A stretch of 20,000 nucleotides of DNA from an uncultured virus (IMG/VR IMGVR_UViG_3300011006_000550) (lineage: Duplodnaviria; Heunggongvirae; Uroviricota; Caudoviricetes), in the IMG/VR virus record IMGVR_UViG_3300011006_000550, one strand, 5' to 3'. The translations under genes were made by a program, and so were the position numbers. Within the stretch, counting starts at the first letter, position 1. Each line of letters begins with the position of its first letter. Positions 202 to 20,000 of the stretch are shown in pieces. The notes beneath the pieces are model-generated. The model searched no databases, was not told where the DNA came from, and was given only the letters and a program-made list of their open reading frames with translations.

Positions 202-251
202 GATGTTCTAATTTCTAAGTTAATATTGATGATTTCAATGTTATCCTTTAG

Positions 252-324
252 TGGCGGGAAGCGGACTCGAACCGCTGACCTCAAGGCTATGATCCTCGCA
301 AGCTACCAACTGCTCCATCCCGCG
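252..324 (-). tRNA. tRNA-Met (CAT), initiator-like but atypical; no encoded CCA
   Basis: Reverse complement CGCGGGATGGAGCAGTTGGTAGCTTGCGAGGATCATAGCCTTGAGGTCAGCGGTTCGAGTCCGCTTCCCGCCA folds as a cloverleaf; anticodon CAT; T-arm AGCGG-TTCGAGT-CCGCT; 1:72 unpaired (C.C). Confidence 0.9.
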
Positions 325-2181: not shown

Positions 2182-3852
2182 ATGACAAAAAGCTTAGATT
2201 TTAAAGAAATCCTTGTGCGCAATCCTGTATACAAGGTGTTGCCAAGCGACTCAAATCTGAAATTTGAGACGTATCAAGGTGTTGACATGTCGGAGCCTGA
2301 CGATCCGCTGAAGCTGCAAGTTTATACGCAGTCGCAGATGCTTCGTGAGTATTATCCTTCAGGTCACAATATCAATAATCCGATTCTGTACCCTGACGTG
2401 TGGAAGAAGGCACCAGTGCCGGGAAAGCCTAACAAGGCACGCTATTTCCGTCAGCCTATCACGCGCGTCTCTCTTGCTTTCCAGCGTATCATCAAGATCA
2501 AGGCCAACGTCCACATCTGCGGAAACGATGCTCAATTTGAGCTTGCATCACCCGAGAGAGACGAGAAGAAGACGCTGAAAGATACATTGTCACTGCTTGA
2601 GTTCAAAGAGGGCTGGCTCACGATGGGAATGGAAGAGCGTCTGTATGATGCTGTCGATTCCATCCATACCGTATCTGATGCGGCCATCGTAGGTTACTTC
2701 GATGATGAAGGGGAACCACAGGCGAGGGTATTCTCTTTCATCAACGGCGATAAGCTCTATCCGCATTACGATTCCATCACTGGCAAGATGAAGCTCTTCG
2801 CCCGCAAGTACCGTGATCTTGATGAAGACGGAAAGAGCACGACCGAGTGGGTAGAGGTGTGGGATAACAAGTATCTCTACCGTTACAAGCGCGACATCAA
2901 CAGCAACGAACTCATTGAGAAATTCAAGGGCTTCTTCGGACTTGGTGGATTCAAGATGGTTGGTGAGCCAGTAGAACACGGATTCCCGTTTATTCCCGTA
3001 GCCTATCATGTGAACACCGAAGGTCCTGTGTGGGCTTTCTCTCAGGACACCATCGAGAAATACGAGGAGGCAATGTCTTACTTCTTCGAGAACAACAAGG
3101 CATACGCTTTCCCGATCTTCTATGCCAAGGGAAAGGGCGTGAAGATTCAGGGCAATATGAACGGTGCCGTCAAGGCCGTTGCCATCACGGACCCGAAGGG
3201 AGAGGCTGGCTTCTTGAATCAGGCCGATGTCTCTGCATCCTACAACACCTTGCTCACGAAGCTCTACGATCTGATTTACGAGCAGTCCTTTGCCGTCAAG
3301 CCGCCCGAATTGAAGTCCGGCGATCTGCCAGGCGTAGCCGTCAAGCTGCTTTTCAGCCCTGCAATAGAACTGGCCATCGGTGGCGTTGCCCACTATCAGG
3401 ACTTCCTTGAGCAGTGTGTCCGCATTGTCAAATACGGATGGGGATATAAGATCAACAAGGCCGCTACGCTTATGACATTGCCTATCAAGTCATGGTTTGA
3501 GCCGTATATCCATCAGAATGATTCAGAGCTGATGCAGAACCTCCGCATCGGTGTGCAGGATGGGTTTATCTCCAAGCAGACGGCATCTGAGCGTGCATCG
3601 AAGTACACCAAGAATGACGAGACAGACCGCATCCTCAAGGAATACAAGCAGATGCAGGAACTTGACCTTCTCTTTGAGACCAAGAAGAAGAAGGCCGAGG
3701 TCGAAGCAGAGATTGAAAAAGAGAAAGCCATTGCCAAGGTCAATCCGAAGCAGGGTAATGTCCGCACAGGAAACGGTCGCAACCGCACCACCGACGAAAA
3801 CGGTAACCACCCTGGCGAAAACAACTGGGATGATTGGGACAAAAATCACTAA
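2182..3852 (+). CDS. Portal protein (SPP1 gp6-like)
   Basis: 556 aa directly after terL; HGFPFIPVAY and SGDLPGVAVKLLF segments resemble SPP1-type portals; charged C-terminal tail. Confidence 0.8.
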   Translation: MTKSLDFKEILVRNPVYKVLPSDSNLKFETYQGVDMSEPDDPLKLQVYTQSQMLREYYPSGHNINNPILYPDVWKKAPVPGKPNKARYFRQPITRVSLAFQRIIKIKANVHICGNDAQFELASPERDEKKTLKDTLSLLEFKEGWLTMGMEERLYDAVDSIHTVSDAAIVGYFDDEGEPQARVFSFINGDKLYPHYDSITGKMKLFARKYRDLDEDGKSTTEWVEVWDNKYLYRYKRDINSNELIEKFKGFFGLGGFKMVGEPVEHGFPFIPVAYHVNTEGPVWAFSQDTIEKYEEAMSYFFENNKAYAFPIFYAKGKGVKIQGNMNGAVKAVAITDPKGEAGFLNQADVSASYNTLLTKLYDLIYEQSFAVKPPELKSGDLPGVAVKLLFSPAIELAIGGVAHYQDFLEQCVRIVKYGWGYKINKAATLMTLPIKSWFEPYIHQNDSELMQNLRIGVQDGFISKQTASERASKYTKNDETDRILKEYKQMQELDLLFETKKKKAEVEAEIEKEKAIAKVNPKQGNVRTGNGRNRTTDENGNHPGENNWDDWDKNH

Positions 3853-5663: not shown

Positions 5664-7187
5664 TTAATCGTCTTCTTTTATGAATGTTCCTTTTTCTTCC
5701 TTGTATTCAATCTCCATGTCGGCAGTACGGATGACGAAGGGCTGACTGAGCCTGTCCTCGTTACAGCCGTAGATGATATAGCGGTAGCCCTCCTTGAAGT
5801 GCTTCTTGCCGAAACCGAACCTTCCCATCGTTTGGCCGAAGAGTTGTCTTGACGGCATATCGACATCGTTATCCTTGCAGAACTGCTCGAGACTCTTATA
5901 CAGATCCTGTGTGGCGATGGTAACGGATTCCTCATGCAAGGCACCTGGCTCTTTGCGCATACGGTATGAGTTGATCCATGCAAGCACGGGATTCATCTGT
6001 AACTGCGCAAGAAGGATCTGTCTTCTGTTACCCTCAGACGAAGGGAACACAAATTTTCTACGCTTCAACTCCCTGCAGCCTCTCAGGATCCAGTTGAAGA
6101 TACCCGGGTATTCTTCAACAAGCTCCCGTGACAAAGCAGGATTCTGTCTGTCCTTGGGTATCGTGATCTCAAAGGTGATGAATTGCAGCCTGCGGATGAA
6201 GCCAAGACTCTGATCGTCGGAGTAGGGCAGCTCGTTCAAGTTGAAGATAAGGAACGGGATATTATAATTCTCCTTCACGTCCTCACCCAGTTTCCTGTCC
6301 GTGACACTCTCACCGCTCACGATTCTCTTGAATACACCAGTGCGCTTTCTGCCAAACGTCCGTTGGTCCGAGTCCGAAGACCAATTAAAGATAGCCTCAC
6401 GCAGCAGCCTACGCGCACGCATACCCTCGTCACCCGTTGCCGTCAAATCATCATAGTCAAGGCCAGAGATCCTTTCCTTGCCGAAGATGCCGATGGCAGT
6501 ATCATAGATCGTGCTCTTGCCGTTAGCACCGGCACCAAGAAGGATAAGGCACAGCTCTATCTTCGAGGCGTTCTTACCCTCATAGGAGTTATAGACAGTA
6601 CCACGCTCCATCAGTCCCAGACCAAGGAACATCTGCAGGATCAGGCGTGAGTTCTTATCCGGCAGAACCTCATGCAGAAAATTGTTCCACTTGTTACACT
6701 TCGCATTCTCCTTATACTCGTAGGGATGATAATATGTAACATGGAACTCTGGGCTGAAAGGAAACAGCATGTACTTTCTCAGGTCCAGCACACCGTTCTT
6801 GAAGGCAATGAGATCATGCCTCGGCAACAGAGGGTTATAGTAGCGGATGATGTCGATGAAGTACTTCTTGCATATTCCCTTATCACCGATCATAGGCACC
6901 ACCCTCAGATGCTCAAGCAACAGGTCATAGGCTGTGATAATCAGTTCCTCACGGATGGCAACATATATCTTATCGTCATAGAGGTAGAAGCTGCCATCAT
7001 AGAACTTGATGTCACAATCCTTTGCAAGCATCCTGATCTTCTCGATGAAGTCAAGTTTCAGATTCTGGAACTGCTCGGAGGTCCTGTAACCCCAGCGGCC
7101 CTTGAACTTCTCGAAATTGAAGTCACCATTGGAGCAGAGCCTCAGCAGCCCGCCGTAGATCTTATCAATAACTGTACTGTCTCTCAT
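5664..7187 (-). CDS. D5/P4-family (SF3) helicase, no evident primase domain
   Basis: D5_N-like LIAFKNGVLDL...FSPEFHVTY; Walker A GAGANGKST; NELP...GFIRRL motif; winged-helix-like C-terminus. Confidence 0.85.
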   Translation of the reverse strand: MRDSTVIDKIYGGLLRLCSNGDFNFEKFKGRWGYRTSEQFQNLKLDFIEKIRMLAKDCDIKFYDGSFYLYDDKIYVAIREELIITAYDLLLEHLRVVPMIGDKGICKKYFIDIIRYYNPLLPRHDLIAFKNGVLDLRKYMLFPFSPEFHVTYYHPYEYKENAKCNKWNNFLHEVLPDKNSRLILQMFLGLGLMERGTVYNSYEGKNASKIELCLILLGAGANGKSTIYDTAIGIFGKERISGLDYDDLTATGDEGMRARRLLREAIFNWSSDSDQRTFGRKRTGVFKRIVSGESVTDRKLGEDVKENYNIPFLIFNLNELPYSDDQSLGFIRRLQFITFEITIPKDRQNPALSRELVEEYPGIFNWILRGCRELKRRKFVFPSSEGNRRQILLAQLQMNPVLAWINSYRMRKEPGALHEESVTIATQDLYKSLEQFCKDNDVDMPSRQLFGQTMGRFGFGKKHFKEGYRYIIYGCNEDRLSQPFVIRTADMEIEYKEEKGTFIKEDD

Positions 7188-9836: not shown

Positions 9837-10464
9837 TCTTCAATAACTCAATGGCTTTCTCCAGAGCCTCATTGACCACATCAGCACGCAGACAACGCTC
9901 GAACTTACGGCCCTTAGCCACCTTCTCACGCTCTGCCCTGTAACTCTCCAGCAGCTTGATACAACGCTCCTTCGTCATCTTCGACTCAGGCACAAGAGTA
10001 TCTATGTGCAAAGGAGCAACACGCATGAAGTCACGCACTCGAAGATCATCAACGGCCATACGAATACCCTTCATGCAATCCGTCAGCTTCTTGCACGTTT
10101 CCTCAGAAATACCAAACTTGATGTCGATAGGATTAACATACCGCTTGCCGTCCATACCATACATACTACCGTCGGCAAACCTGAAATACATGCCGGTACC
10201 AGTAGCAGTAATCTCTACCTGATGCGATACCTTGATCCTGTTTAGATACGTGTCTTCCACCTCATGAAGCATACACTCAGGAAAACACAGAATGAAATCC
10301 TCGCCCTTATAGCGAACGTAAACCTCATAACCGTAACCAAGGAACTTCTCGATCCTTCCTACAGCATGAGTCAGATTCAATACAACTAACTTGTCAGGCA
10401 TCTGAACCTTAGCCTCGTCTGCATTGAAACCGCAAAGATCACCTTTCCTAAATTTCGGGTCCAT
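9829..10464 (-). CDS. Hypothetical protein (211 aa), first gene of the minus-strand operon
   Basis: ATG start, PKFRKGDL N-terminus typical of small phage proteins, 8-nt overlap with the next gene. Confidence 0.75.
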   Translation of the reverse strand: MDPKFRKGDLCGFNADEAKVQMPDKLVVLNLTHAVGRIEKFLGYGYEVYVRYKGEDFILCFPECMLHEVEDTYLNRIKVSHQVEITATGTGMYFRFADGSMYGMDGKRYVNPIDIKFGISEETCKKLTDCMKGIRMAVDDLRVRDFMRVAPLHIDTLVPESKMTKERCIKLLESYRAEREKVAKGRKFERCLRADVVNEALEKAIELLKNG

Positions 10465-10646
10465 CTTTGGTTAGTGAACGAACTTGAACGATATTTATAG
10501 ACCTTTTCAGAACTTCTGTCACCAGTAAACCCCTGATAACCAGCAAATTCCGCCACACAAAACAACGAAATTCACGATTTCTGGATTTCCTGGCCCCAAG
10601 ACGTTACAATCTATAGTACCTATCTATATCTAACCAAATTGCGATG

Positions 10647-10654
10647 CAAAGATA
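10647..10654 (-). promoter_or_regulatory. Bacteroidetes -7 element for the leftward operon
   Basis: Minus strand TATCTTTG followed by CA, ~180 nt upstream of ATG 10464. Confidence 0.65.
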
Positions 10655-11430
10655 CAACTTTTCATTAATATCATTCACTATTTATACAAAAAGTGCATAT
10701 TTATTAGGATTTTTTAATGAACGATATTTTTTCTACACTCTGAGATCGTTAAGAATGATGAACGATTTCGTGACATCTGACGAATTGTTAAAACGGCCCA
10801 AAAATTCAGGAAAAAAATAATTTTGAGGCGACCGCCGCCACAAATCTCGTGCCAAAAAAGGGGGTGTAGGGGGTATTTTAAGGGTATTAAAGAGTATTTA
10901 ACACTCTCTGCAAAAATTCATTAAAATTTGCTGAAATAGCCCTATTTTACACATATTTAACACTATTCCCGATATTATACCTAATAATGTAGGCTGGTTA
11001 TTTAATATTTTTTAACTTTATTTCTTTGGTTTAACAAATTTTTAGGATTCGCGCCACCATGTCATGGTAATTTATTTTTACGCCACATTGTCATAAGATT
11101 TTTCTTTACATTATGATTGATTTATATCAAGTATGATTATACATTTATGCAATAACCTTCTGGAAACGCCTTTAAACAGGGGATTTCATAAAATTGAATA
11201 TGCAATAATTTTGCGTTCCGAAATAAAGATTCTTTACACTTGAAATGTCAATATTTAATCATTATTTAACCTATAATAACATTGTCGGATTGTGCGCCCA
11301 CACATCACGATTTTGTAAACATAATTTAACTAACATGGTCGTAACATTAAGTAATATTTAGTTGTGTGCCTACACAGGCCCTTTGGGAATGCCTTTGTAC
11401 AGGGCATTATTTTGTAAATATATTTCACTA

Positions 11431-11461
11431 TTGCAAGTATGGAATTTATTTCGTAACTTTG
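11431..11461 (+). promoter_or_regulatory. Bacteroidetes promoter for the rightward module
   Basis: TTG (11431-11433), 20-nt spacer, TAACTTTG (11454-11461), ~80 nt upstream of ATG 11544. Confidence 0.65.
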
Positions 11462-11543
11462 TACTATAAGAAATGAATATTTAACCACTGCCAAACGGGG
11501 AAACGCAGCGCACCACAAAGGAGCGGAACAGCCCGAAAGATTT

Positions 11544-12158
11544 ATGTGTACATTAAACGAGACCTTAAAGAAGGTAGGAGAAAACGCCAAAGGTAGTGTC
11601 AAGGTAGAGAAAATGAAGGCCGAAATTGCCAAGGTTGCAGCCAGGTATTACGCACCTTATCGCCACGCTCTTATTAGTGAGTTGTTCAAGGGTGCCAGTG
11701 AGGACGAACTTAAGGCAGAACTTGCAGCCTTTGACGCTGACACCAAGAACGGCACACAGTTAGTTATCATCGCAGCCGACACCAAGGTGAACGCAAACGG
11801 ACAACTCACAGATGATGAGGGGAACATTCTCGAAAATGCAGTATCTTTCGCCACCGTGATTTCTACCAACAAAGACGGTGAAATCACAAAGGAGCGTCAA
11901 GTGTTCCGTGTTCCCTACATCGCAGACACCGACCAGCGTAACAACCGTATTGTTGCCTACTGGGTGCGTTTCCGTGAGACGCGCGAGGAGTCATTTGCTG
12001 CAGCCCGTGCCGCCAAGGTTGACTCTATTAAGAAGGAGTTGCAGCCGTTGTCCGTTCAGGTTGAAACATTCACCAAGTACAACGTGCCCGTACCCGCTGA
12101 ACTTTCAGAGAAGGTGGATGCTCTCAAGGCTGAACTTTCAAAACTGGGTGCGGAATAA
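11544..12158 (+). CDS. Hypothetical protein (204 aa), first gene of the rightward module
   Basis: Lies between promoter and terminator; biased codon use (CGT, AAG); helical C-terminus. Confidence 0.85.
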   Translation: MCTLNETLKKVGENAKGSVKVEKMKAEIAKVAARYYAPYRHALISELFKGASEDELKAELAAFDADTKNGTQLVIIAADTKVNANGQLTDDEGNILENAVSFATVISTNKDGEITKERQVFRVPYIADTDQRNNRIVAYWVRFRETREESFAAARAAKVDSIKKELQPLSVQVETFTKYNVPVPAELSEKVDALKAELSKLGAE

Positions 12159-12185
12159 ACGCAGACGGAAACAGACGGAAAAGAC

Positions 12186-12216
12186 GAAGGTAGGGAAATT
12201 CCTACCTTCTCTTTTT
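12186..12216 (+). terminator. Intrinsic terminator
   Basis: GAAGGTAGG-gaaatt-CCTACCTTC followed by TCTTTTT, 27 nt after the stop. Confidence 0.75.
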
Positions 12217-12243
12217 GTGCCCTGTCTTTCCAGGCCCTAAGAA

Positions 12244-12303
12244 ATCCCCTGACGAGTCTTTGAGAATTAAGACGAAACCACAGATCTGTTCTGTGGTCGG
12301 GAT
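12244..12303 (+). ncRNA. Type I hammerhead ribozyme
   Basis: Stem I ATCCC (12244-48)/GGGAT (12299-303); core CTGACGA (12249-55); stem II GTCTT/AAGAC; GAAA (12274-77); stem III CCACAGA/TCTGTGG; GTC triplet 12296-98 with predicted cut after C12298. Confidence 0.93.
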
Positions 12304-12343
12304 AATCCTTTTGTGTTTTTCCTCAGTGTATTGTCCGGCTGAG

Positions 12344-12404
12344 CGAACGGACTGAACGATTTGAACGAACGAACGATGAATAAGAGTGAACGATTGATGA
12401 ACGA
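12344..12404 (+). repeat. Cluster of (T)GAACGA direct repeats
   Basis: TGAACGA at 12353, 12362, 12387 and 12398, plus overlapping GAACGA at 12367 and 12371. Confidence 0.75.
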
Positions 12405-12408
12405 GCGA

Positions 12409-12729
12409 ATGATGTTTGTCACAAGACGTGGCCAGTCTGCTGAGATTCAGAGAAAGAACTGGCTGAGAAGACTTAGAACAAAGAGGTCTGCCGATCCCGA
12501 AGGATGGGTGACTGCAAAATTTGTTGGTCAGATGGGATTTACAAACTTTAATTTTTGTGCACATTCATGGAGAGCTATCAAGATGGAAGCCAAAATTATC
12601 GCTTCACTTCAACATGAGCCTATCGAAGTTTTGGATGCAAATACACTGATTCCATTATTCATATGTCTTCCTTGCTTTGATTCGCGTGAAGATATTATTT
12701 CATACACAGAACGTGCATTTCAGAATTAA
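12409..12729 (+). CDS. Hypothetical protein (~106 aa)
   Basis: Open frame between the hammerhead and the structured region; the longer N-terminus in the ORF track is a translation of GAACGA repeats, so ATG 12409 is preferred. Confidence 0.5.
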   Translation: MMFVTRRGQSAEIQRKNWLRRLRTKRSADPEGWVTAKFVGQMGFTNFNFCAHSWRAIKMEAKIIASLQHEPIEVLDANTLIPLFICLPCFDSREDIISYTERAFQN

Positions 12730-13401
12730 GTACGATAACACAGAGCACAGGCGCAAGCCTGTAATGTGGCTCACCTCATGGTGAACGGTTGCAAGCCCGT
12801 GCAAACAACATTCAAACGGTGAAAATGTAACGTGGAGGGGCGCAAGCCATAGCCACTACCGCACAGAGAAACCGAGCGACAACGAGCGTTTTGAACGACT
12901 TCCAGCTAATTACTTGATTTTTGTCGCCAGTGGGAGTATTGCAGCCGACCGGCGGGGTGAAACTAAAGTCCCGCAAGCCCCGCAAGGGACGAGTGACTGT
13001 TACAAATCATATTCTTAGATTATTTCTCCCGTGAGGGAGTACGATAATAACGGATAGCTACTGTCCGAGAGCGACTTGAGCAATCAAGTACGATGAACGA
13101 GTGAGTTTATCGTGGTGGTTCCCGCCAAGAGTACGAAAGCACATTTAATCACTTTAGGATGCTACGCAGTATGCAGGGCTTTGATGGTCAGGCAGCTGGC
13201 AATGAAAGACATTAAGGGTGCAAGACCCATAGCATAAAGAACGGTTTGACAGTACGATTCATAAAACTGCCACACGGAACGGTTGCAAGTAAAGAGGCCC
13301 GAAAGGGGACTTGCAGGAGAGAACGAGTACGATAACAAAAACGAAGTTCCGGAGACTACGGGAGAGAGCAGGGAAACCTGCTCTCTCTTACTTTCAACCA
13401 A
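12730..13401 (+). ncRNA. Large structured non-coding RNA candidate, family unassigned
   Basis: No credible ORF; many GNRA-capped hairpins (ACAGGC-GCAA-GCCTGT 12747-62, CCC-GCAA-GGG, CTCCC-GTGA-GGGAG, CCC-GAAA-GGG, GAGAGAGCAGG-GAAA-CCTGCTCTCTC); long-range helices 12911-19/13082-90, 12923-27/13071-75, 13275-80/13346-51, 13284-90/13309-15. Confidence 0.75.
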
Positions 13402-13419
13402 TTAAAAACAAGTACGATT

Positions 13420-13629
13420 ATGATTAAGAGAATTGCTTTGCATCTTATCGCCCTGGTGGTACTGATGCCGTGTATGTTGGTGTTTAATATCAGCGAGAAG
13501 TTATGGGTAAATATCCTTGGACTGATTTATTGTTGCTATTTGTACATCATCCTGAACGAGAGCGATGCAGCCAAGCGTTTTGTTCGTCGTTACTACCATG
13601 AGATCCTCCGTTTGCAGAACATGTTGTAG
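13420..13629 (+). CDS. Small membrane protein (69 aa), array gene 1
   Basis: Two hydrophobic segments; the TAG stop begins element 1. Confidence 0.75.
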   Translation: MIKRIALHLIALVVLMPCMLVFNISEKLWVNILGLIYCCYLYIILNESDAAKRFVRRYYHEILRLQNML

Positions 13630-13686
13630 TTTCTCTGATTTTTGTGGCAGAAGGCTGCAAAAATCGCTCACTTTCAACCACTAAAA

Positions 13687-13794
13687 ATGAACAATATGTA
13701 TTACGTAGAGATTGACAACGGAGAGAGATTCTATTTTGGCGACGATTTCAACGCTGCCGCAGTGTTCAACCATGCCGTGAATGACAGGCATTAG
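13687..13794 (+). CDS. 35-aa peptide MNNMYYVEIDNGERFYFGDDFNAAAVFNHAVNDRH
   Basis: Not in the ORF track; fills the space between elements 1 and 2, and its TAG is that of element 2. Confidence 0.65.
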   Translation: MNNMYYVEIDNGERFYFGDDFNAAAVFNHAVNDRH

Positions 13795-13844
13795 TCTTCT
13801 TTCGGCCATTGTATGGCCGAGCTATTAACCAAAGTACGATTATT

Positions 13845-14048
13845 ATGACAGACAGAAAATTTGAGCATCTTACTGATGTGGTTGATTTCTTCAGTTGGAA
13901 GCAGTTCGACGAGAAAGAGAGGTTTTCTTTGAGTGAGGACCAGCGAAGACAGCTTACCGAGGTACGCGACGAACTCGAAGACTATTCGAGGTCTGGCGAT
14001 GCGGTTGCAGATCTTTGGCTTGAATGTGCGAACGAGTTGCTGAATTAG
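13845..14048 (+). CDS. Hypothetical protein (67 aa)
   Basis: ATG 13845 after element 2; TAG in element 3. Confidence 0.75.
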   Translation: MTDRKFEHLTDVVDFFSWKQFDEKERFSLSEDQRRQLTEVRDELEDYSRSGDAVADLWLECANELLN

Positions 14049-14094
14049 TCTCTTGGAGCCTGTTGGCTCCGCTTATAACCAAAACTTACATGAT

Positions 14095-14355
14095 ATGAAA
14101 AGAAATGCTTTACTTAGGACGAGTGCTATCTTCAAGTGTATTGTCACATTCAAGAACGGCACTCACGCAGTTATCAGAATGACCATTGACATGGTAGCGA
14201 AAATCACGTATGAGTTCAGGGAGTTTCAGCGTAACATCTTCTCAGAGACATGGCTTCTCTGGGTGAGCGCAACGGAGATTCTTAACATCACAGAGATTCG
14301 TTCTTGCAAGTTCATCAACGAAAACACTGGTGTTGAGTTCCTTACGATTGATTAG
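14095..14355 (+). CDS. Hypothetical protein (86 aa)
   Basis: ATG 14095 after element 3; TAG in element 4. Confidence 0.75.
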   Translation: MKRNALLRTSAIFKCIVTFKNGTHAVIRMTIDMVAKITYEFREFQRNIFSETWLLWVSATEILNITEIRSCKFINENTGVEFLTID

Positions 14356-14404
14356 TCTTTTGGGAATCTTGCATGATTCCCGCTATTCACCAATATTCAA
14401 GAGT

Positions 14405-14830
14405 ATGTTACAATCAGAGTTTTACGACAGGACGCACGTTACTCTCTCAGCAGAGCAGTACGGCGAGGTAGAGAACATCTACAACAGGTGTCAGATGGAT
14501 AAGGACGAGTTCTGCAGGCTGTGGCTTGAGAATCGTGACAACAAAATCATCAAAGAACTGATGGACCACATCATGAACACCGAAAAGAAGTTGTATTTTG
14601 CAAAGGAAAAAGCTGCCAAATGCGACAAAGCGATTAATGACGAGCGCGAAAAATGTAAGGAGCACATTGAGAGCCTTGGGCGCAAGGTCGTTGCGAACAT
14701 CGACGATGAAACAAAGTTATACGATGCCATTGAAGAGGAGTTCACGCTTGATTTCATCATCAAGGTCAAGTTGCAGGAAAACATGGATCTCGATCTGCAC
14801 GAACGGCAGCACCTCATTGAGAAACTTTAG
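14405..14830 (+). CDS. Hypothetical protein (141 aa, MLQSEFYDRT...MDKDEFC)
   Basis: ATG 14405 after element 4; TAG in element 5; coiled-coil middle. Confidence 0.8.
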   Translation: MLQSEFYDRTHVTLSAEQYGEVENIYNRCQMDKDEFCRLWLENRDNKIIKELMDHIMNTEKKLYFAKEKAAKCDKAINDEREKCKEHIESLGRKVVANIDDETKLYDAIEEEFTLDFIIKVKLQENMDLDLHERQHLIEKL

Positions 14831-14874
14831 TCTTCGCAGCCGAACGGCTGCACTACAACCAAACTATCAGAATT

Positions 14875-15171
14875 ATGAAATATATGGCAACGTTTGATGC
14901 TTGGAAGTTGGGAACTTTCGACATCATTTTGGAAAAGTACGATGCAGATTGCTGTTCTCACCCAGGCCCGTGTGACTTGGATTGTGAGCGAACGATTAAT
15001 CTTGATTATGTCAAAGAACAACTCAAGGAAATCACCTCTGAGCAGATCCGTCAGGTCTTGATAGACTATGGCCTTGAAGATGCCGACGAGAAAGACCGCA
15101 AGCAACTTGAGACGTATATTGTCTGGCTTGCAGCGGGTGACATCATAGACGGGAACTGTACTGAATGTTAG
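14875..15171 (+). CDS. Hypothetical acidic protein (98 aa)
   Basis: Between elements 5 and 6; CCSHPGPCD motif. Confidence 0.8.
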   Translation: MKYMATFDAWKLGTFDIILEKYDADCCSHPGPCDLDCERTINLDYVKEQLKEITSEQIRQVLIDYGLEDADEKDRKQLETYIVWLAAGDIIDGNCTEC

Positions 15172-15233
15172 TCTCTATCGGGCAGTGCCCGACTATAAAC
15201 CAATTTAACTTATTATTAGAGGAGATATAGTTT

Positions 15234-15686
15234 ATGAAAGAAACATTTTGCCCTTACTGTGGTTCTGAGAATATTACTATTCAGGCTACAGACCTTTTAG
15301 AGTGTAATGATTGTAAAGAGTTGTTTACTCATGAAGATGTAGAACATAATATTCTTCGTGATAAAATCAGCAGCATCTGCTCTGCTTTCGAGGCAACTGA
15401 GGATAATCCCATTAACTGTATCAGGGAGGATGCTATGGAACTCCACATAGAAGGCATTACAGAAGCAGCACAGGGACTTTCTGAATCAGAGAAGCCACAG
15501 GTAAGCACTGTTTTCCATGATCCGGAAGGAATCGTGTGGATTACCTTTTTAGAATATCCTTTTGGGGGGTCGCCTTGTAACAGTGAACCAATGGAACTTG
15601 ATAGTATTTCTATCAATGATTCTCTGAAAGAAATTCTGTCGTGGCTTGAAGAAAACCTGAGTGTCAACGCTCTTGGAAGATGTTAG
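15234..15686 (+). CDS. Hypothetical protein with N-terminal zinc ribbon (150 aa)
   Basis: CPYCGS...CNDC; between elements 6 and 7. Confidence 0.8.
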   Translation: MKETFCPYCGSENITIQATDLLECNDCKELFTHEDVEHNILRDKISSICSAFEATEDNPINCIREDAMELHIEGITEAAQGLSESEKPQVSTVFHDPEGIVWITFLEYPFGGSPCNSEPMELDSISINDSLKEILSWLEENLSVNALGRC

Positions 15687-15731
15687 TCTCTATCGGGCAT
15701 TCGCCCGAACTATTCACCAATATTTTTGATT

Positions 15732-15899
15732 ATGGAATTTGTTCACACAGAAATCAAGGAGCATCCTCTACGAGATTGTTTAATGTTGTGGATTCCAGAG
15801 CTTCCTTTTGTGCCTCCTTTGTTTGGAACAAAGAAGGAATTAGAAGAAGCGAGAGTATTTGCAGAACAAAAAGCAGAGGATTATCTTAAAAGTCACTAA
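15732..15899 (+). CDS. Hypothetical protein (55 aa, MEFVHTEIKEHPLRDCLMLWIPELP...)
   Basis: Not in the ORF track; ATG after element 7; ends in TAA with no element following. Confidence 0.65.
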   Translation: MEFVHTEIKEHPLRDCLMLWIPELPFVPPLFGTKKELEEARVFAEQKAEDYLKSH

Positions 15900-15910
15900 A
15901 TCATTGAGAT

Positions 15911-16069
15911 ATGGCACAGAAGAAAGTAGAATGGTATTGCTTTACCGACAACAAGGATTGGGGCCGTTTTTTCATTGGCAAGGCCAGTACGAAAAGGGAG
16001 GCCGTTGACATGGGCAAGGTAGCGAACAAAGGTAAGTTCGTGGTTGAGCCGCGTCGTAAATGGAAGTAG
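15911..16069 (+). CDS. Small basic protein (52 aa), paralog of 16125-16289
   Basis: MAQKKVEWYCFTDNKDWGRFFIGKASTKREAVDMGKVANKGKFVVEPRRKWK; TAG in element 8; not in the ORF track. Confidence 0.8.
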   Translation: MAQKKVEWYCFTDNKDWGRFFIGKASTKREAVDMGKVANKGKFVVEPRRKWK

Positions 16070-16124
16070 TCTTTAAATTGCGCAATCGCCGATTGCGTAA
16101 TTACTCTAACCAATTCCATAATAT

Positions 16125-16289
16125 ATGAGCAGAAATTATCACTACGAGTATTTTGCCTATACTGACAATTTGAATTATGGCCGTGTGTATCTTGGCCAGG
16201 CACGTCAGCGTTGGTATGCACAGATGATTGCAAAAAAGGCAAACAAAGGATGCTATGTCATAGAAAAGCATCGTGTGTACGAAAATTAG
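16125..16289 (+). CDS. Small basic protein (54 aa), paralog of 15911-16069
   Basis: MSRNYHYEYFAYTDNLNYGRVYLGQARQRWYAQMIAKKANKGCYVIEKHRVYEN; TAG in element 9; not in the ORF track. Confidence 0.8.
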   Translation: MSRNYHYEYFAYTDNLNYGRVYLGQARQRWYAQMIAKKANKGCYVIEKHRVYEN

Positions 16290-16334
16290 TCTCTTGGCTT
16301 CCACTGAGAGGCCGCTATGTTTCACCAACAAATT

Positions 16335-17234
16335 ATGAAGAATATGGAAAGAAGAGAAAAAGTTAATGCCTTACGAGAGTTAGCTGTACGCTCTGGCCGC
16401 AACATTAGCATGGATCCCGACAGATGGGGAGAGCACATGCTTGACAGCCTTGAAAGCAGTCTTGACAAATTCCTTTCGCAGATTCCTGACGAGTTGAAGG
16501 ATGAAATGGAAGATGCCTACATTGAGAAATACAAGGAATGGCTTTACGCTCAGAGCCGGTGCTTCTCTCAGATGATTACAGGTGCAGGAGGCTGGACTCC
16601 TGCCGTGCATCGCAGACATGAGAAGACGAACGCTGCCGAACATGCTGCCTATGAACGGCTTCAGACTTGGGCAGAGAGAGTCATCAAACGATGCAACCGT
16701 CAGGAACGTCTCACGGGATGGGCCGAAGTTGAGCGTCTTCAGGAGAAGATAGACAACCTTACGAGATCTCAGGAAATGATGAAGGCCGCGAATAAGATTG
16801 TTCGCGACAAGAAACTGGCCGAGGTCGAGAAGGTTGACGAACTTGTTGCACTCGGATTCCGTGAAGAAGTCGCCATTGAAATCCTGCACCCTAAGTATGA
16901 TTGGATGCAGCCTGGATTTGCTTCTTACAGTTTGACCAATAACCTTGCTAAAATCAAGGATGCAGAGGCGAAGATGAAACGTCACGCTGCAATGGCAGAG
17001 AGAGCAACAGAAGGTGATGAAGTCCACGAATATGAGTGGGGAAAGCTCGTTGTTGCGTTTGGTGACGAACGCTACCGCTTCATTTTTGACGGCAAGCCTT
17101 CTCAGGAAATCATCAATCTGATGAAGTCGAACGCTTTCAAGTGGAGTCCCGCCAATTCTGCTTGGCAGCGTCAGATCACTACCAATGCAAAGTACGCCGT
17201 GAAGCGTATGATTGAGGAGCTTAACAACATGTAG
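16335..17234 (+). CDS. Phage/plasmid early-type protein with DUF3560/polyvalent-protein-like C-terminal domain
   Basis: SRCFSQMITG motif and C-terminal RFIFDGKPSQEIINLMKSNAFKWSPANSAWQRQIT, a pattern I recognise from DUF3560-type proteins. Confidence 0.6.
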   Translation: MKNMERREKVNALRELAVRSGRNISMDPDRWGEHMLDSLESSLDKFLSQIPDELKDEMEDAYIEKYKEWLYAQSRCFSQMITGAGGWTPAVHRRHEKTNAAEHAAYERLQTWAERVIKRCNRQERLTGWAEVERLQEKIDNLTRSQEMMKAANKIVRDKKLAEVEKVDELVALGFREEVAIEILHPKYDWMQPGFASYSLTNNLAKIKDAEAKMKRHAAMAERATEGDEVHEYEWGKLVVAFGDERYRFIFDGKPSQEIINLMKSNAFKWSPANSAWQRQITTNAKYAVKRMIEELNNM

Positions 17235-17285
17235 TCTTTTGTCCCGCCTTGCATGGTGGGACGCTATTAACCAATTCTACAGATT

Positions 17286-17582
17286 ATGATGAAGATATTA
17301 TCAAAGGACAATTTCAGCTTCTTTGAAATCAAGGAAGACTGCAGGGAGAATTTCAATGAGGTACGTTGGACGGACCTCTCTGACTTCCACAAGAACGCTC
17401 TGATTTGGATCGGCGATGCCATACGTGGCGATAAGTCGCAGCATTTCTGGTGTAACGGCTGCTACTGTTGGTATGTTGACGAGAAGCAGAGCCATGAGCA
17501 GGGTGTATGGATGACACAGAACGGCATAGCCATGTTCGAGGACATCACCGAGAGAAAGCTCTATCGCATCGAGTTCGTTTAG
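17286..17582 (+). CDS. Hypothetical protein (98 aa)
   Basis: Between elements 10 and 11. Confidence 0.8.
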   Translation: MMKILSKDNFSFFEIKEDCRENFNEVRWTDLSDFHKNALIWIGDAIRGDKSQHFWCNGCYCWYVDEKQSHEQGVWMTQNGIAMFEDITERKLYRIEFV

Positions 17583-17644
17583 TCTCTGAGGGAGGGGACA
17601 GATTGTACCCCTCCTTGCACATTTAACCCCTAATTTTATAGAAT

Positions 17645-17977
17645 ATGGAACAGACAGCAGTTGTTACCGATGCTCAGCGCATCAATCAGATTACCGGCCG
17701 TCCTATGGCCGATTGTGAGAAACAGGCTCAGCAGATCGCAGAGTGCATCCGTGAAATGTCCTCTCGCGTCGTTGAGTTCTACTACATGAAGAAGGATGGA
17801 ACGAAGCGTCAGGCTTTCGGCACGTTGCAGCCGGAGGTGATTGTGCCTCTTATCAGCAATGCGCCCGAGCGCAAGCCGAATCCCGACCTCGTGACGTACT
17901 ACGACACCGAGGCACAGGGTTTCCGTTCATTCAAGAAGGTGAATTTCGTGGAGTACGTTAAAGTCCCTGAAGCATGA
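17645..17977 (+). CDS. WYL_2/DUF2693 Sm-like SH3 beta-barrel protein
   Basis: VVEFYYMKKDGTKRQAFGTL...VTYYDTEAQGFRSFK signature. Confidence 0.8.
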   Translation: MEQTAVVTDAQRINQITGRPMADCEKQAQQIAECIREMSSRVVEFYYMKKDGTKRQAFGTLQPEVIVPLISNAPERKPNPDLVTYYDTEAQGFRSFKKVNFVEYVKVPEA

Positions 17978-18117
17978 GCGGTTTTGTAAAGAATGCCTGG
18001 GCCTTCTTCCTCATGATGCTCTTGTTTGGTGTGTACACCATTCCGATTATCGTTGCCATCGGGATTGTTGCTCTGCTCATTGCGAGATACAAGCCCGAAT
18101 GGTTCAACAGAGTGTAG
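17974..18117 (+). CDS. 47-aa membrane peptide, paralog of 18169-18312
   Basis: MSGFVKNAWAFFLMMLLFGVYTIPIIVAIGIVALLIARYKPEWFNRV; ATGA overlap with the WYL_2 gene; TAG in element 12; not in the ORF track. Confidence 0.8.
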   Translation: MSGFVKNAWAFFLMMLLFGVYTIPIIVAIGIVALLIARYKPEWFNRV

Positions 18118-18168
18118 TCTTAAGCCGTGCAAAGGACACGGCACCATGATTCACCAATCTTTTACAAA

Positions 18169-18312
18169 ATGACAGAAATAGCAAAATTCGCCTGGACTTT
18201 GGTCCTTGTAATCTTCTTTGTAGGTATGAAGGCTTTCATCATTCTCTTGGTGATTTTAGCCCTCATTGCAGTACTCTACATCATCAATCCTGATTGGTTT
18301 AAGCCGAAGTAA
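18169..18312 (+). CDS. 47-aa membrane peptide, paralog of 17974-18117
   Basis: MTEIAKFAWTLVLVIFFVGMKAFIILLVILALIAVLYIINPDWFKPK; stop overlaps element 13. Confidence 0.8.
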   Translation: MTEIAKFAWTLVLVIFFVGMKAFIILLVILALIAVLYIINPDWFKPK

Positions 18313-18365
18313 GTCTCAAGCCGTGCAAAGGACACGGCACCACCAACCAATTAAATTTTACGAAT

Positions 18366-19361
18366 ATGAAACATGAAGATTTTAGAATCCGCTACAATGA
18401 AATCATGTTCGACGAGCGCGACGTGATTAAGTCATTCTTAGAGCGTCAGGCCGACATTCGCTATGGTAAGCAGATGTGGGAATGGTGCCTTAACAATGTT
18501 CAGGTGATTGCCGTCAATGGTTCCCTCTATTATTGTTACGAGATTTTCCTCGAGGATGGCGATGTGAAGTTTAGGATGAAACCCGCAATCGATTGGCAGG
18601 GAGAGACAGAAGTTTGGGAATGTTCAAATTTCGCTCTTGGTGAGCTTTCAAAGATTATCGATGCTCTGCCTGAGATTGAGAAGATCATCCGTACCAATGC
18701 AGAATCTGACTTGAAGGAGTTCTGCAAGGATTGTTCTGTCAATCTCGAAGGTGAAGAGTTCCGATGGGAGGTGGGCTGTGCTGGGTACGAAGTCCAGGAG
18801 ATTGCCATTGACAACAAAGGCGACTTGAATTGCTTAGTCATGCACACAGATTCCCTTGGCAAAAAGACATTCCTCCAAGTCGATCACTTTGACTTGGATA
18901 TTACTCAGAAACTCCGCGACCATGTGCATGTTGTCATTCTGCATCGAAGCAAAGAGTATAAGAAGTTGATGGAGTTACTTGAGAAATTCGATAATCTCCG
19001 TTGCGACTTTGAACACCCTGATTACTTCATCACACCTGTCGGTACAGACCTTACTTGCATGGTTCTTTCTGTTTACAGGAATGCAGATGAGCTGTATGTA
19101 TTGACAGACCCAGGCGAGCGCATTGGCGATACATTCCTCTTTAAAGAGAAGGATTTGAAAGATTGTAATCTTGCCATCTGTATTGAGGCCGTCAAAGACA
19201 TGTTGCCTGTGAAGATGATGACAGTCACTGTCTCTGAGGTACGCTCTCGTATTATCGAAGTCGAGGCAGATGATTTCAACGAAGCGAAGAAGAAGGCCAA
19301 AGAGGTGCTTGAAAAAGAGCCTCTTAATGACGGCGATTCCAACGGAATCCAATTCCTTTAG
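18366..19361 (+). CDS. Hypothetical protein (331 aa) with C-terminal DpnD/PcfM-like domain
   Basis: C-terminal MTVTVSEVRSRIIEVEADDFNEAKKKAKE matches the DpnD/PcfM pattern by eye; TAG in element 14. Confidence 0.7.
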   Translation: MKHEDFRIRYNEIMFDERDVIKSFLERQADIRYGKQMWEWCLNNVQVIAVNGSLYYCYEIFLEDGDVKFRMKPAIDWQGETEVWECSNFALGELSKIIDALPEIEKIIRTNAESDLKEFCKDCSVNLEGEEFRWEVGCAGYEVQEIAIDNKGDLNCLVMHTDSLGKKTFLQVDHFDLDITQKLRDHVHVVILHRSKEYKKLMELLEKFDNLRCDFEHPDYFITPVGTDLTCMVLSVYRNADELYVLTDPGERIGDTFLFKEKDLKDCNLAICIEAVKDMLPVKMMTVTVSEVRSRIIEVEADDFNEAKKKAKEVLEKEPLNDGDSNGIQFL

Positions 19362-19415
19362 TCTCTCGGGAGCCGTGCACGGCTCCTACTATTATTCACC
19401 AAAATTCAAAGTAAT

Positions 19416-20000
19416 ATGATAAAGATAGACACTTACGAACTTGCAAAGGAAGTTCAGAAGATTGAGATCAGAAATCTCGTTGAAGCAGTCAAATCCTATG
19501 GTGGCAGAGTCACGTTCTGTGATATGGATGCCGTTGATGGAGAGCAGACTGCTGACGTTAATGAGAGGGCTTGCGTCATGGTAAACGTTGACAACGTAGG
19601 CCCTATCGATGTCTATATCAATTCCGTAGAGGTCGATGATGATTCTCACCTCCATATCAGAGGCGAGTACAAAGACGATTTCGGAGAGTACGACATCGAC
19701 GCGACAGATATTGCCGTCGGCCACATCGGATTTATCACAGATCTGATTCCTTTCAAGAAGGGAATGAAGAAACTCTGGCTTCGCCTTGGTGTTGAGGTTG
19801 ACGCTACAGACGAAGAGGTTGAGGACATCATCGAGAACAAAGGCAGCTGGGGCAGATTCAGCATCCAGCAGATTATCGAGGATGGCCGTTTCAGACTGTC
19901 GGGACTTACCGTAGTGCCGGAGGAAACCATCGAAGATTTCAACAAGGAAGAAGGCTCTCAGTTTGAGGTCAAAGATGTAGAGTACGATTACAAGTCATAA
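19416..20000 (+). CDS. Hypothetical acidic protein (194 aa)
   Basis: ATG after element 14; TAA at 19998-20000. Confidence 0.8.
   Translation: MIKIDTYELAKEVQKIEIRNLVEAVKSYGGRVTFCDMDAVDGEQTADVNERACVMVNVDNVGPIDVYINSVEVDDDSHLHIRGEYKDDFGEYDIDATDIAVGHIGFITDLIPFKKGMKKLWLRLGVEVDATDEEVEDIIENKGSWGRFSIQQIIEDGRFRLSGLTVVPEETIEDFNKEEGSQFEVKDVEYDYKS

Follow-up and report, generated by a model that had tools for sequence, protein, structure and literature searches.

A short element that recurs at the gene boundaries of one operon in an uncultured tailed phage may be an intercistronic punctuation signal for RNA processing and stability. The element lies in a 20,000-nucleotide (nt) stretch of virus record IMGVR_UViG_3300011006_000550 (hereafter the window), where it stands at 14 of the 16 plus-strand gene ends between positions 13,420 and 19,402. 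Its full order is the word AGTCT, 3 nt (standard deviation (sd) 1), a hairpin of free sequence, R-C-N-A-T-T (R, purine; N, any base), an [A/C]ACC[A/C] box, 13–18 nt, and GAAT-ATG, which ends in the next start codon. We hold this function tentatively, at somewhat less than an even chance, because the element acts as a plus-sense single strand, measures a fixed distance from word to helix, and recurs at boundary after boundary of an operon that bears ribozymes. What is new here is a free helix between invariant single-stranded words that are placed at stop and start codons and associated with operons headed by twister ribozymes; hairpin signals between cistrons are a known feature of phage early operons.

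In the proposed mechanism, the 5′ half of the element (AGUCU, 3 nt and the sequence-free hairpin) would close the upstream cistron. The 3′ half (R-C-N-A-U-U, [A/C]ACC[A/C], 13–18 G-poor nt and GAAU-AUG) would form an unstructured leader for the next cistron, the host working without Shine-Dalgarno pairing. The polycistronic transcript would first be cut at the conserved single-stranded flanks, at a set distance from the hairpin base, by a phage factor or a host endoribonuclease of the RNase Y or RNase G type. The hairpin would then block exonucleases, such that every small gene would yield a separately stable, separately translated message, and the shared boundary sequences would double as seams for gene swapping between related phages. 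Two candidate cut sites seem about equally likely to us: one follows the G of AGUCU and lies 6 nt 5′ of the hairpin, and the other falls in the A/U/C-rich linker on the 3′ side of the hairpin. Roughly half of our weight on the proposal goes to cleavage on the 5′ side and half to cleavage, or an exonuclease block, on the 3′ side.

The element had been described from the letters of the window alone (the sequence-only reading), and a recount returned the same figures: an element at 14 of 16 gene ends, with the stop codon in TAGT(C/T)T in 13 copies and in TAAGTCT in one. An in-frame TAG opens TAGTCT in 12 of these copies, with the variants TAGTTT (13627) and TAAGTCT (18310) found once each, and the two internal genes without an element do end in TAA (15887) and TGA (17975). 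The hairpin of varying sequence reported after each stop was likewise recovered. All 14 copies fold as hairpins with minimum free energies (MFE) of −9.5 to −18.3 kcal/mol, and their z-scores against dinucleotide shuffles range from −1.14 to −4.78, with 12 of the 14 at or below −2.3. The motif described as usually GCTA or ACTA after the hairpin is present as RCTA in 8 of 14 window copies, and the [A/C]ACC[A/C] box, its set distance to the next ATG and the GAAT-ATG context had been overlooked. The array and its elements are as follows.

13420..20000, plus strand: array of 17 small co-oriented genes punctuated by the elements
13351..13405, plus strand: head element, before the first array gene; conserved hairpin and ACC box, with AGACT replacing AGTCT
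13627..13681, plus strand: element 1, after gene 13420-13629; TAGTTT variant core, long hairpin, AACCAC box; MFE −14.2 kcal/mol, z −2.33
13792..13832, plus strand: element 2; TAGTCT, hairpin, GCTATT, AACCAA; z −3.07
14046..14082, plus strand: element 3; z −3.30
14353..14393, plus strand: element 4; TTGCAT loop; z −2.81
14828..14862, plus strand: element 5; z −3.90
15169..15203, plus strand: element 6; z −2.31
15684..15720, plus strand: element 7; z −4.04
16067..16113, plus strand: element 8; 12-base-pair (bp) stem including G·T pairs; z −4.78; reverse complement 4.7 kcal/mol weaker
16287..16328, plus strand: element 9; hairpin register ambiguous, as the core can join the stem; z −1.14
17232..17274, plus strand: element 10, after the gene for a 299-amino-acid (aa) protein; TTGCAT loop; z −3.59; compensatory double change against locus L127
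17580..17630, plus strand: element 11; box variant AACCCC ahead of the WYL_2 gene; z −1.89
18115..18157, plus strand: element 12; z −2.42
18310..18350, plus strand: element 13; TAA stop sharing its last A with AGTCT; z −2.57
19359..19402, plus strand: element 14; z −3.54

The orthologous copy of element 1 in a related phage (L119) has AGTCT. Element 13 follows a paralogous small membrane-protein gene, and its hairpin is identical to that of element 12. The head element is conserved, stem sequence included, in 5 of 5 aligned loci (window, L126, L129, L140 and L144). Its AGACT, next to the hairpin, is the reverse complement of AGTCT, and a 7-nt stretch there is complementary to the junction-element core TAGTCTC/T.

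The signal in the window is one of placement and not of abundance. Counted over the whole window and both strands, TAGTYT (Y, pyrimidine) is not enriched (23 found, 18.5 expected, with 31 of 200 shuffles reaching 23). The 5.8-kb array holds 12 of the 13 plus-strand TAGTCT words, each of them supplying an in-frame stop. A twin viral record (G001; 19.7 kb, completeness rating 26%) has 11 forward and 0 reverse copies of TAGTCT-N10-40-ACCAA, and a backwards control gives none on either strand.

In an effort to define the element beyond the window, relatives were fetched using the 299-aa array protein (gene 16335-17234). The same elements were found in 1 of 5 viral contigs with relatives of this protein (L119, which is the complete 75.6-kb phage G002 with direct terminal repeats) and in 11 of 26 metagenome loci. 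Candidates were collected from the window and 11 loci (12 sources) by requiring AG[TC]CT, a hairpin, an [A/C]ACC[A/C] box and an ATG. This gave 107 candidates, of which 99 had an ATG and 95 were distinct; 91 were kept after four rows (window 9732, L126 6573, L144 1041 and L140 20006) were dropped manually as coding or non-array sequence or as mis-registered. The architecture and spacings hold across these 91 copies, as follows.

Third letter of AGTCT: T in 93%
AGTCT to hairpin: 3 nt in 53 copies, 2 nt in 14, 4 nt in 15; sd 1.0
Hairpin length: 14–30 nt in 88 copies
First two letters 3′ of the hairpin: R in 80%, C in 86%
Following letters: N, A (71%), T (65%), T
Hairpin to ACC: 6–10 nt in 78 copies; 3 to 24 nt overall
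ACC to ATG: 13–18 nt in 76 copies
Start context: G(−4) in 68%, A(−3) in 86%, T(−1) in 90%

The stretch from hairpin to ATG is nearly free of G. The invariance of AG[TC]CT among the 91 copies is built in by selection; it is present in 13 of the 14 unfiltered window copies. A search by hairpin, box and ATG alone found an AG[TC]CT core within 12 nt in 99 of 168 candidates, and many of the remaining 69 are coding-region false positives or have variant pyrimidine-rich cores. A stricter DNA pattern returned arrays in two more viral contigs (L239/L251 and L257) and perhaps in L252. The element family is found in at least 13 phage contigs besides the window.

The hairpin acts in a plus-sense single strand, almost certainly the mRNA, because the plus strands of the 91 hairpins hold 67 G·T pairs against 5 single A·C mismatches. 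In their reverse complements, these numbers become 14 G·T pairs and 27 A·C mismatches, and the plus strand folds better in 60 hairpins, equally well in 10 and worse in 21. The sequence-only reading had remarked that non-Watson-Crick positions are mainly G·T on the plus strand and had argued for selection on a plus-strand fold as opposed to a double-stranded DNA site; both points are supported by this strand asymmetry and by covariation, which it had suggested examining among homologs. The copies comprise 83 distinct hairpins, 45 of which belong to 11 equal-length families. Covariation was counted on these gapless families in place of a MAFFT alignment, which put the stems out of register. Their 93 stem pairs include 65 that are invariant, 20 with two-sided changes, 5 with one-sided wobble changes and 3 that are ever non-standard. 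In a 15-member family with a TTGCAT-type loop, the loop that the sequence-only reading had noted in copies 14353 and 17232, 7 of 7 pairs covary. Their score of 1.014 compares with 0.298 after shuffling, is matched by 0 of 500 shuffles and falls to 0.313 or less on sliding the partner.

As the hairpins were chosen by folding, the percentage of paired positions is partly built in. In a check defined by position, all AGTCT-type loci compared have a hairpin at the junction that follows the 299-aa gene, with several different stems, and a compensatory double change separates the window from L127 there. About 15 hairpins with wholly different stems share the TTGCAT-type loop (variants TTGCAC and GTGCAC; palindrome TGCA), for example at window 14369-14374 and 17241-17246. 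Other recurring loop types are CAAAGGA and TTCG.

The flanks of the hairpin remain unpaired in both fold and duplex calculations. A closing helix between TAGT and RCTA, with a pyrimidine-rich bulge of 4–6 nt, had been proposed and did not hold up: it appears in the MFE structure of 2 of 14 window copies plus one partial case, and the partner position of the A of TAG holds T in just 38% of the 91 copies (A 31%, C 21%, G 10%). Pairing of the 5′ core with the next start region was also rejected, with duplex values of −1.89 for cognate, −1.91 for non-cognate and −1.64 and −2.07 for shuffled combinations, and therefore a terminating ribosome would not unmask the start in this way.

The quantity that is conserved is the distance from AGTCT to the helix; the ruler runs from word to helix and not from stop to helix, because AGTCT keeps its hairpin distance even where the stop lies elsewhere. 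The core had been described as anchored on the stop codon. The overlap of stop and word stands for the window, and relatives show that the conserved word is AGTCT and not the stop, as it follows TAA or TGA there or sits inside the reading frame. By a longest-open-frame heuristic, which misassigns a few frames (e.g. window 18116), TAG overlaps AGTCT in 60 of 91 copies, the stop precedes AGTCT in 21, and the stop lies at least 5 nt downstream of the A of AGTCT in 10, of which at least one and probably three are wrong-frame calls. Examples are four open reading frames (ORFs) of 73–116 codons that end just past AGTCT and one of 191 codons that ends in the loop. By the same heuristic, the distance from stop to hairpin is 5–7 nt in 62 copies and spread from −45 to +34 in the others. 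The stop nonetheless tends to sit as late as possible ahead of the element, and TAG ends 6 of 13 array genes in G002 as compared to 12 of 66 genes elsewhere.

These distances bear on a different function, in which the element would be a translation device: the hairpin would insulate the start region while the ACC box and G-poor leader act as a Shine-Dalgarno-independent enhancer, or ribosomes would re-initiate across the hairpin. The fixed ACC-to-ATG spacing and start context are what such a device would show, and the box marks 10 of 13 array genes in G002 versus 5 of 66 others. Box and leader also move with the downstream gene (5 of 52 pairs versus 49 of 2536 in the background), and the head element, with no gene upstream, still has hairpin, box and leader. 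A translation device nonetheless leaves AGUCU and its 3-nt distance to the helix unexplained, and it fits poorly with a stop-to-hairpin distance that varies while the AGTCT-to-hairpin distance is constant and with a 5′ core that pairs no better with its cognate start region than with others. We consider this explanation unlikely.

The elements punctuate what is, judged from its predicted promoters, one transcription unit comprising array and leader. Host-type −7 boxes, by which we mean a motif that we take to be that of Bacteroidota promoters, occur on the plus strand upstream of the first operon gene (10818, 11206 and 11454) and only once inside the array (15721). The features of the leader are listed below.

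11454..11461, plus strand: candidate host-type promoter −7 box, upstream of the first operon gene (11544-12158)
12186-12218, plus strand: canonical terminator-like hairpin and T-tract, between the first operon gene and the remainder
12232-12303, plus strand: hammerhead-like match, sub-threshold (RAGATH-1 hammerhead model, 29.3 bits against a gathering score of 56.3, E 0.13)
12376-12729, plus strand: second operon gene, 117 aa, with an arginine-rich N-terminus
12739-12800, plus strand: Twister-P5 ribozyme (43.5 bits against a gathering score of 37.6), directly after the stop of the second operon gene

Expression of the array seems to need read-through of the terminator at 12186-12218. The elements themselves pass a lax intrinsic-terminator test (5 T in 8) in just 2 of 14 cases, as expected from the earlier statement that they are not ordinary terminators. 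That they are weak, factor-dependent or otherwise non-canonical terminators after each gene strikes us as very improbable. A GC-rich hairpin right after the stop and the two T-rich tails are in keeping with termination; set against this, 12 of 14 copies have no T-run while a canonical terminator exists in the same locus, the array holds a single host-type promoter box with which transcription could be restarted, and the conserved single-stranded words would have no role. No host-type promoter was found inside the elements, although a phage-specific promoter type would escape this motif, and sigma-70-like sites (22 versus 15.8 ± 4.4 expected) are in no case positioned at elements.

The need for read-through lends some appeal to a transcription signal. 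Each boundary would either make RNA polymerase pause with the help of the hairpin or recruit an elongation or antitermination factor, in the manner of Bacteroides ops sites or nut sites, such that the enzyme resists terminators or Rho or stays coupled to the ribosome. The plus strand of the element doubles as the non-template strand, and the arginine-rich N-terminus of the second operon protein is conserved in L144 (65% over 43 residues), right after the twister of that locus; this stretch could act as an RNA-binding peptide. Directly after the position that ACC would occupy, the usual pause consensus has G, and the elements have A or C. In the modal class of elements, which accounts for 35 of 91 copies, the hairpin ends 9–10 nt before the last C of ACC, a match to the hairpin-dependent pause geometry that is described for Bacteroides fragilis capsule leaders (PMC11685472). 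Over all copies, however, the hairpin-to-ACC distance ranges from 3 to 24 nt, and known systems as a rule load once per operon and not once per gene. No NusG-like or known antiterminator family was detected among 20 window proteins (Pfam), 25 (PHROGs) or 76 proteins of G002. Taken together, a transcription signal appears quite unlikely. A related case, the Bacteroides opsX pause sites involved in UpxY recruitment, comes from the same phylum and likewise combines a nascent hairpin with a conserved stretch ~10–14 nt later near a start codon. These sites differ from the element in that one site per operon leader is read by a neighboring NusG paralog, where the element occurs once per gene.

RNA cleavage is already built into this transcript. 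Twister matches stand in the leaders of all six arrays for which leader sequence is available (window, L126, L140, L144, L257 and L251). Twister-P5 is above gathering in two of them (window and L251), and the other four have only twister-P1 matches below gathering (best E 1e-9 to 8e-5); related leaders hold one or two matches in the same place. From the twister to the first array gene runs a non-coding stretch of ~640 nt (12763-13405, plus strand; MFE −204 kcal/mol, z −4.2, 0 of 20 shuffles) without an Rfam match, ROOL included. A 604-letter contig from an RNA library maps on 12788-13366. In the hammerhead-like match at 12232-12303, the conserved core letters align, and the match lies just past the canonical terminator.

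Twister and hammerhead-like motifs in the same transcript, together with ~13 conserved nucleotides around a free helix, raise the question of whether the element is itself a new small self-cleaving ribozyme or a tRNA-minihelix-like mark for RNase P. R-C-N-A after the helix and the ACCA box recall the tRNA 3′ end. The element has, however, no conserved tertiary or outer pairing from which a catalytic core could be made, its loops vary between families, a variable linker parts the ACC box from the helix, and ARAGORN finds no tRNA-like element here. Comparison with Rfam, which had been suggested as a check, matched no family to any element, either at gathering score or at E values up to 5 over window 10400-20000 (including twister, twister-sister, pistol, hatchet, hammerhead and RAGATH). 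In relatives, the one Rfam overlap with elements is a chance-level Histone3 hit (E 0.13). We regard both versions as highly doubtful.

The known system that comes closest to the proposed punctuation signal is the group of RNase Y maturation sites. Those of Staphylococcus aureus saePQRS and of Bacillus subtilis cggR-gapA and glnRA resemble the element in being intercistronic, with a purine or G ahead of a structure at a set distance. In S. aureus, a duplex is required and the cut falls 6 nt upstream of it (PMC5449607); the G of AGTCT lies 6 nt before the hairpin in the modal class, with TCT and then 3 nt (53 of 91), 2 nt (14) or 4 nt (15) separating it from the helix. For B. subtilis, PMC11780869 describes a preference for cutting after G, a downstream hairpin that counts by its structure and stabilizes the product, and an effect of the AU-rich stretch just 3′ of the hairpin on RNase Y cleavage, which parallels the free helix and A/U-rich 3′ linker of the element. 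RNase Y and RNase E/G score over the curated cut-off in 5 of 5 Bacteroidales proxy genomes that encode 46–52% identical relatives of the 299-aa protein.

Several observations weigh against punctuation of this kind. RNase Y sites are single and share no strong word, and the known sequence preference of the enzyme is loose, whereas the element is a near-invariant pentamer with two further boxes per boundary. Cleavage is demonstrated for RNase Y sites and is predicted for the element. The B. subtilis logic, in which a 5′ hairpin shields the message from RNase J, is not directly transferable because RNase J is over the cut-off in 0 of the 5 proxy genomes, and these genomes are proxies for the host. 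A cut after AG would leave a minority of upstream messages without a stop (the 10 of 91 above, minus wrong-frame calls). Near-confinement of the elements to one operon, as judged from the box counts in G002, is not obviously what a general stability device would show. The RNA data consist of contigs from one metatranscriptome run covering 6% of sampled words, and they carry no information on ends, strand or level, such that uncovered parts are uninformative. One of these contigs (189 letters, 13557-13744) spans element 1 and, if it is RNA, indicates that not every molecule is cut there.

The punctuation reading can also be taken further. A dedicated sequence- and structure-specific RNA-cutting system might read AGUCU at its set distance from the helix and chop the ribozyme-released transcript into single-gene messages, some of which may end exactly at the stop codon, with the same marks doubling as seams for cassette exchange. 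The cutting agent could be a host nuclease of unrecognized specificity, a phage protein from the array, for instance the conserved, Sm-like WYL_2 protein in a guiding role, or the RNA itself. We rate this bolder version as rather unlikely; if true, it would be a bacterial-virus counterpart of mitochondrial tRNA punctuation.

The elements also mark where genes have been exchanged. Blocks of homology between the window and its relatives break off at elements, and the genes are arranged differently. In L126 and L129, for instance, the homologs of 14405-14830 and 13845-14048 stand side by side with their order reversed. To follow the two halves of the element, linkage was counted over pairs of elements drawn from different loci.

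Upstream gene only homologous: 69 pairs; same hairpin family in 15, same box and first five leader letters in 2
Downstream gene only homologous: 52 pairs; same hairpin family in 1, same box and leader letters in 5
Both genes homologous: 10 pairs; same hairpin family in 2, same box and leader letters in 4
Neither gene homologous: 2536 pairs; same hairpin family in 52, same box and leader letters in 49

By these counts, the hairpin moves with the upstream gene and the box and leader with the downstream gene. The exchange unit is thus box, leader, ORF, AGTCT and hairpin, with the seam between hairpin and box, because hairpin family follows upstream homology and box and leader follow downstream homology. 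As a further point against RNA punctuation, the tie between hairpin and upstream gene may just reflect a longer conserved tract on the 3′ side of the hairpin.

Such shuffling could instead be the primary function, with the elements as recombination seams that act through short-homology exchange, as proposed for PeSLs, or as attC-like substrates of a single-strand recombinase. Just 10 of the 131 element pairs that share at least one homologous neighbor share both, and the genes of G002 include those for a RecT-like annealing protein, an exonuclease and, at the end of its array, a tyrosine recombinase (integrase). Yet the conserved tracts are only ~8 and 12 nt long, expression is suggested by both the strand asymmetry and the attachment to stop and start codons, and any repeated boundary can yield shuffling as a by-product. 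We therefore see a primary role in recombination as improbable.

Both models for such seams share features with the element. attC sites are 57 nt or more in length; the element, at 35–55 nt, is shorter. As in attC sites and the DUF1874 motif arrays (PMC5737381), co-oriented promoterless small genes each carry a strand-specific hairpin conserved in structure, and the cassettes are reshuffled. The element differs in having no complementary R boxes, as its flanks AGTCT+N3 and R-C-N-A-T-T are not complementary in the 91 copies, and in being tied to the start context of the next gene. No integron integrase was recognized either: the recombinase at the array end of G002 scores 31.6 bits on TIGR02249 against a cut-off of 265, and the window stops before that position. 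PeSLs of T4-like phages are described in PMC4122927 as composite stem-loop and promoter motifs in small-ORF arrays that are implicated in modular shuffling. The element similarly is a repeated stem-loop between small accessory ORFs of a plastic region and marks shuffling breakpoints. PeSLs, however, have sigma-70-type hexamers at set spacing and a terminator, whereas the element is without a host-type promoter or T-tract and its conserved words flank the hairpin at helix-measured distances.

Two further classes of hairpin signal are related to the element more distantly. In the early operon of phage T7, hairpin signals between most genes are cut by the host nuclease RNase III to give stable monocistronic mRNAs that keep the hairpin; these sites are long irregular duplexes with similarity in stem sequence. 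The likeness lies in a hairpin signal between genes of a phage polycistronic message, and the difference in stems of 6–13 bp that are too short for classical RNase III and free in sequence, with the conserved parts single-stranded. REP/BIME and SPRITE-type repeats are also hairpins just past stop codons, and REPs can stabilize upstream cistrons. Their copies are conserved in sequence and chromosome-wide, whereas the stems here are free and nearly confined to one phage operon. On these tests, the element is not a canonical terminator, attC site, host-type promoter cassette, host-wide repeat or Rfam family. A description of it was not found in the full-text literature; the 224-motif list accompanying PMC5737381 and two ribozyme discovery papers lay outside that search, so prior cataloguing is possible.

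The window is a fragment of a tailed phage, with genes (Pfam, PHROGs) for large terminase (458-2173), portal (2182-3852), an HNH endonuclease and, on the minus strand, a D5-type primase/helicase (5664-7187). Its relative G002, which has genes for a tape measure protein, repressor and anti-repressor and the recombination proteins named above, is a temperate siphovirus-like phage. Start regions are without Shine-Dalgarno sequences, and the closest cellular relatives of the 299-aa array protein (46–52% identity) lie in Bacteroidales genomes, including a metagenome-assembled genome of sheep Prevotella, because of which the host is probably a rumen member of the Bacteroidales.

The element is, as far as these searches reach, restricted to a narrow, uncultured phage lineage, because its pattern occurs no more often than expected by chance across 301 genomes of the proxy host family (46 unclustered hits, with a similar number in the backwards control) and a blastn search of the GenBank phage collection with window 13400-19500 gave no match. 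A looser pattern scan (TAGTCT..CTATTNACCAA) returned 116 loci with one match apiece, and the nine loci richest in relaxed matches held no element. Searching genome contigs with the 299-aa protein alone retrieved no relative, and searching with an alignment of it retrieved 80 loci, the nearest being the Bacteroidales genes above; AGTCT elements were absent from all six of these 80 loci that were examined. The hairpin habit itself extends wider than the conserved words. In two of the six, Bacteroidales contigs with distant arrays around 299-aa homologs (L153 and L158), GC-rich hairpins directly follow stops and C/A-rich leaders are present, with no AGTCT.

A part in processing polycistronic transcripts has been proposed for the bacterial twister and hammerhead ribozymes that lie near phage genes, and no role of theirs is established (PMC6765202); here they head an operon with a second structure-conserved RNA mark at its gene boundaries. 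Programmed dissection of a phage polycistronic message thereby becomes testable at one locus. The element would be a compact, portable boundary module of ~55–65 nt through which a single promoter could drive many small genes in Bacteroidota, a phylum in which the expression of internal cistrons without Shine-Dalgarno sequences is little understood. Additionally, it marks the seams at which anti-defence-type genes swap between rumen phages, G002 encoding an anti-restriction-like protein and RadC.

Other products of the window array include the WYL_2 protein, a zinc-ribbon protein, two 47-aa membrane-protein paralogs and the 299-aa protein itself (PHROG 6744/19458). The first two operon proteins matched no family in Pfam, PHROGs or NCBIfam and gave no usable Atlas hit. 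Copies of the hexamer G[A/T]ACGA number 35 in the window (17.5 expected, sd 4.1; 0 of 200 shuffles reach 35), and the plus strand has 32 of these. Of these copies, 24 lie within 10476-13839, partly in tandem at 12354-12404, and they may be sites for a regulator or RNA-binding protein. G002 has two AGTCT-hairpin elements outside its array, at 68996-69053 and 3205 (L125 and L122); one of the two has box and start codon and lies between the exonuclease and helicase genes. A tRNA-Met gene (251-324, minus strand) adjoins the terminase gene of the window. Lastly, in relatives without AGTCT elements, matches to c4-2 RNA, a P1-type antisense RNA family, stand above gathering score upstream of the 299-aa gene (L117, 5297-5374; L118, 5340-5416).

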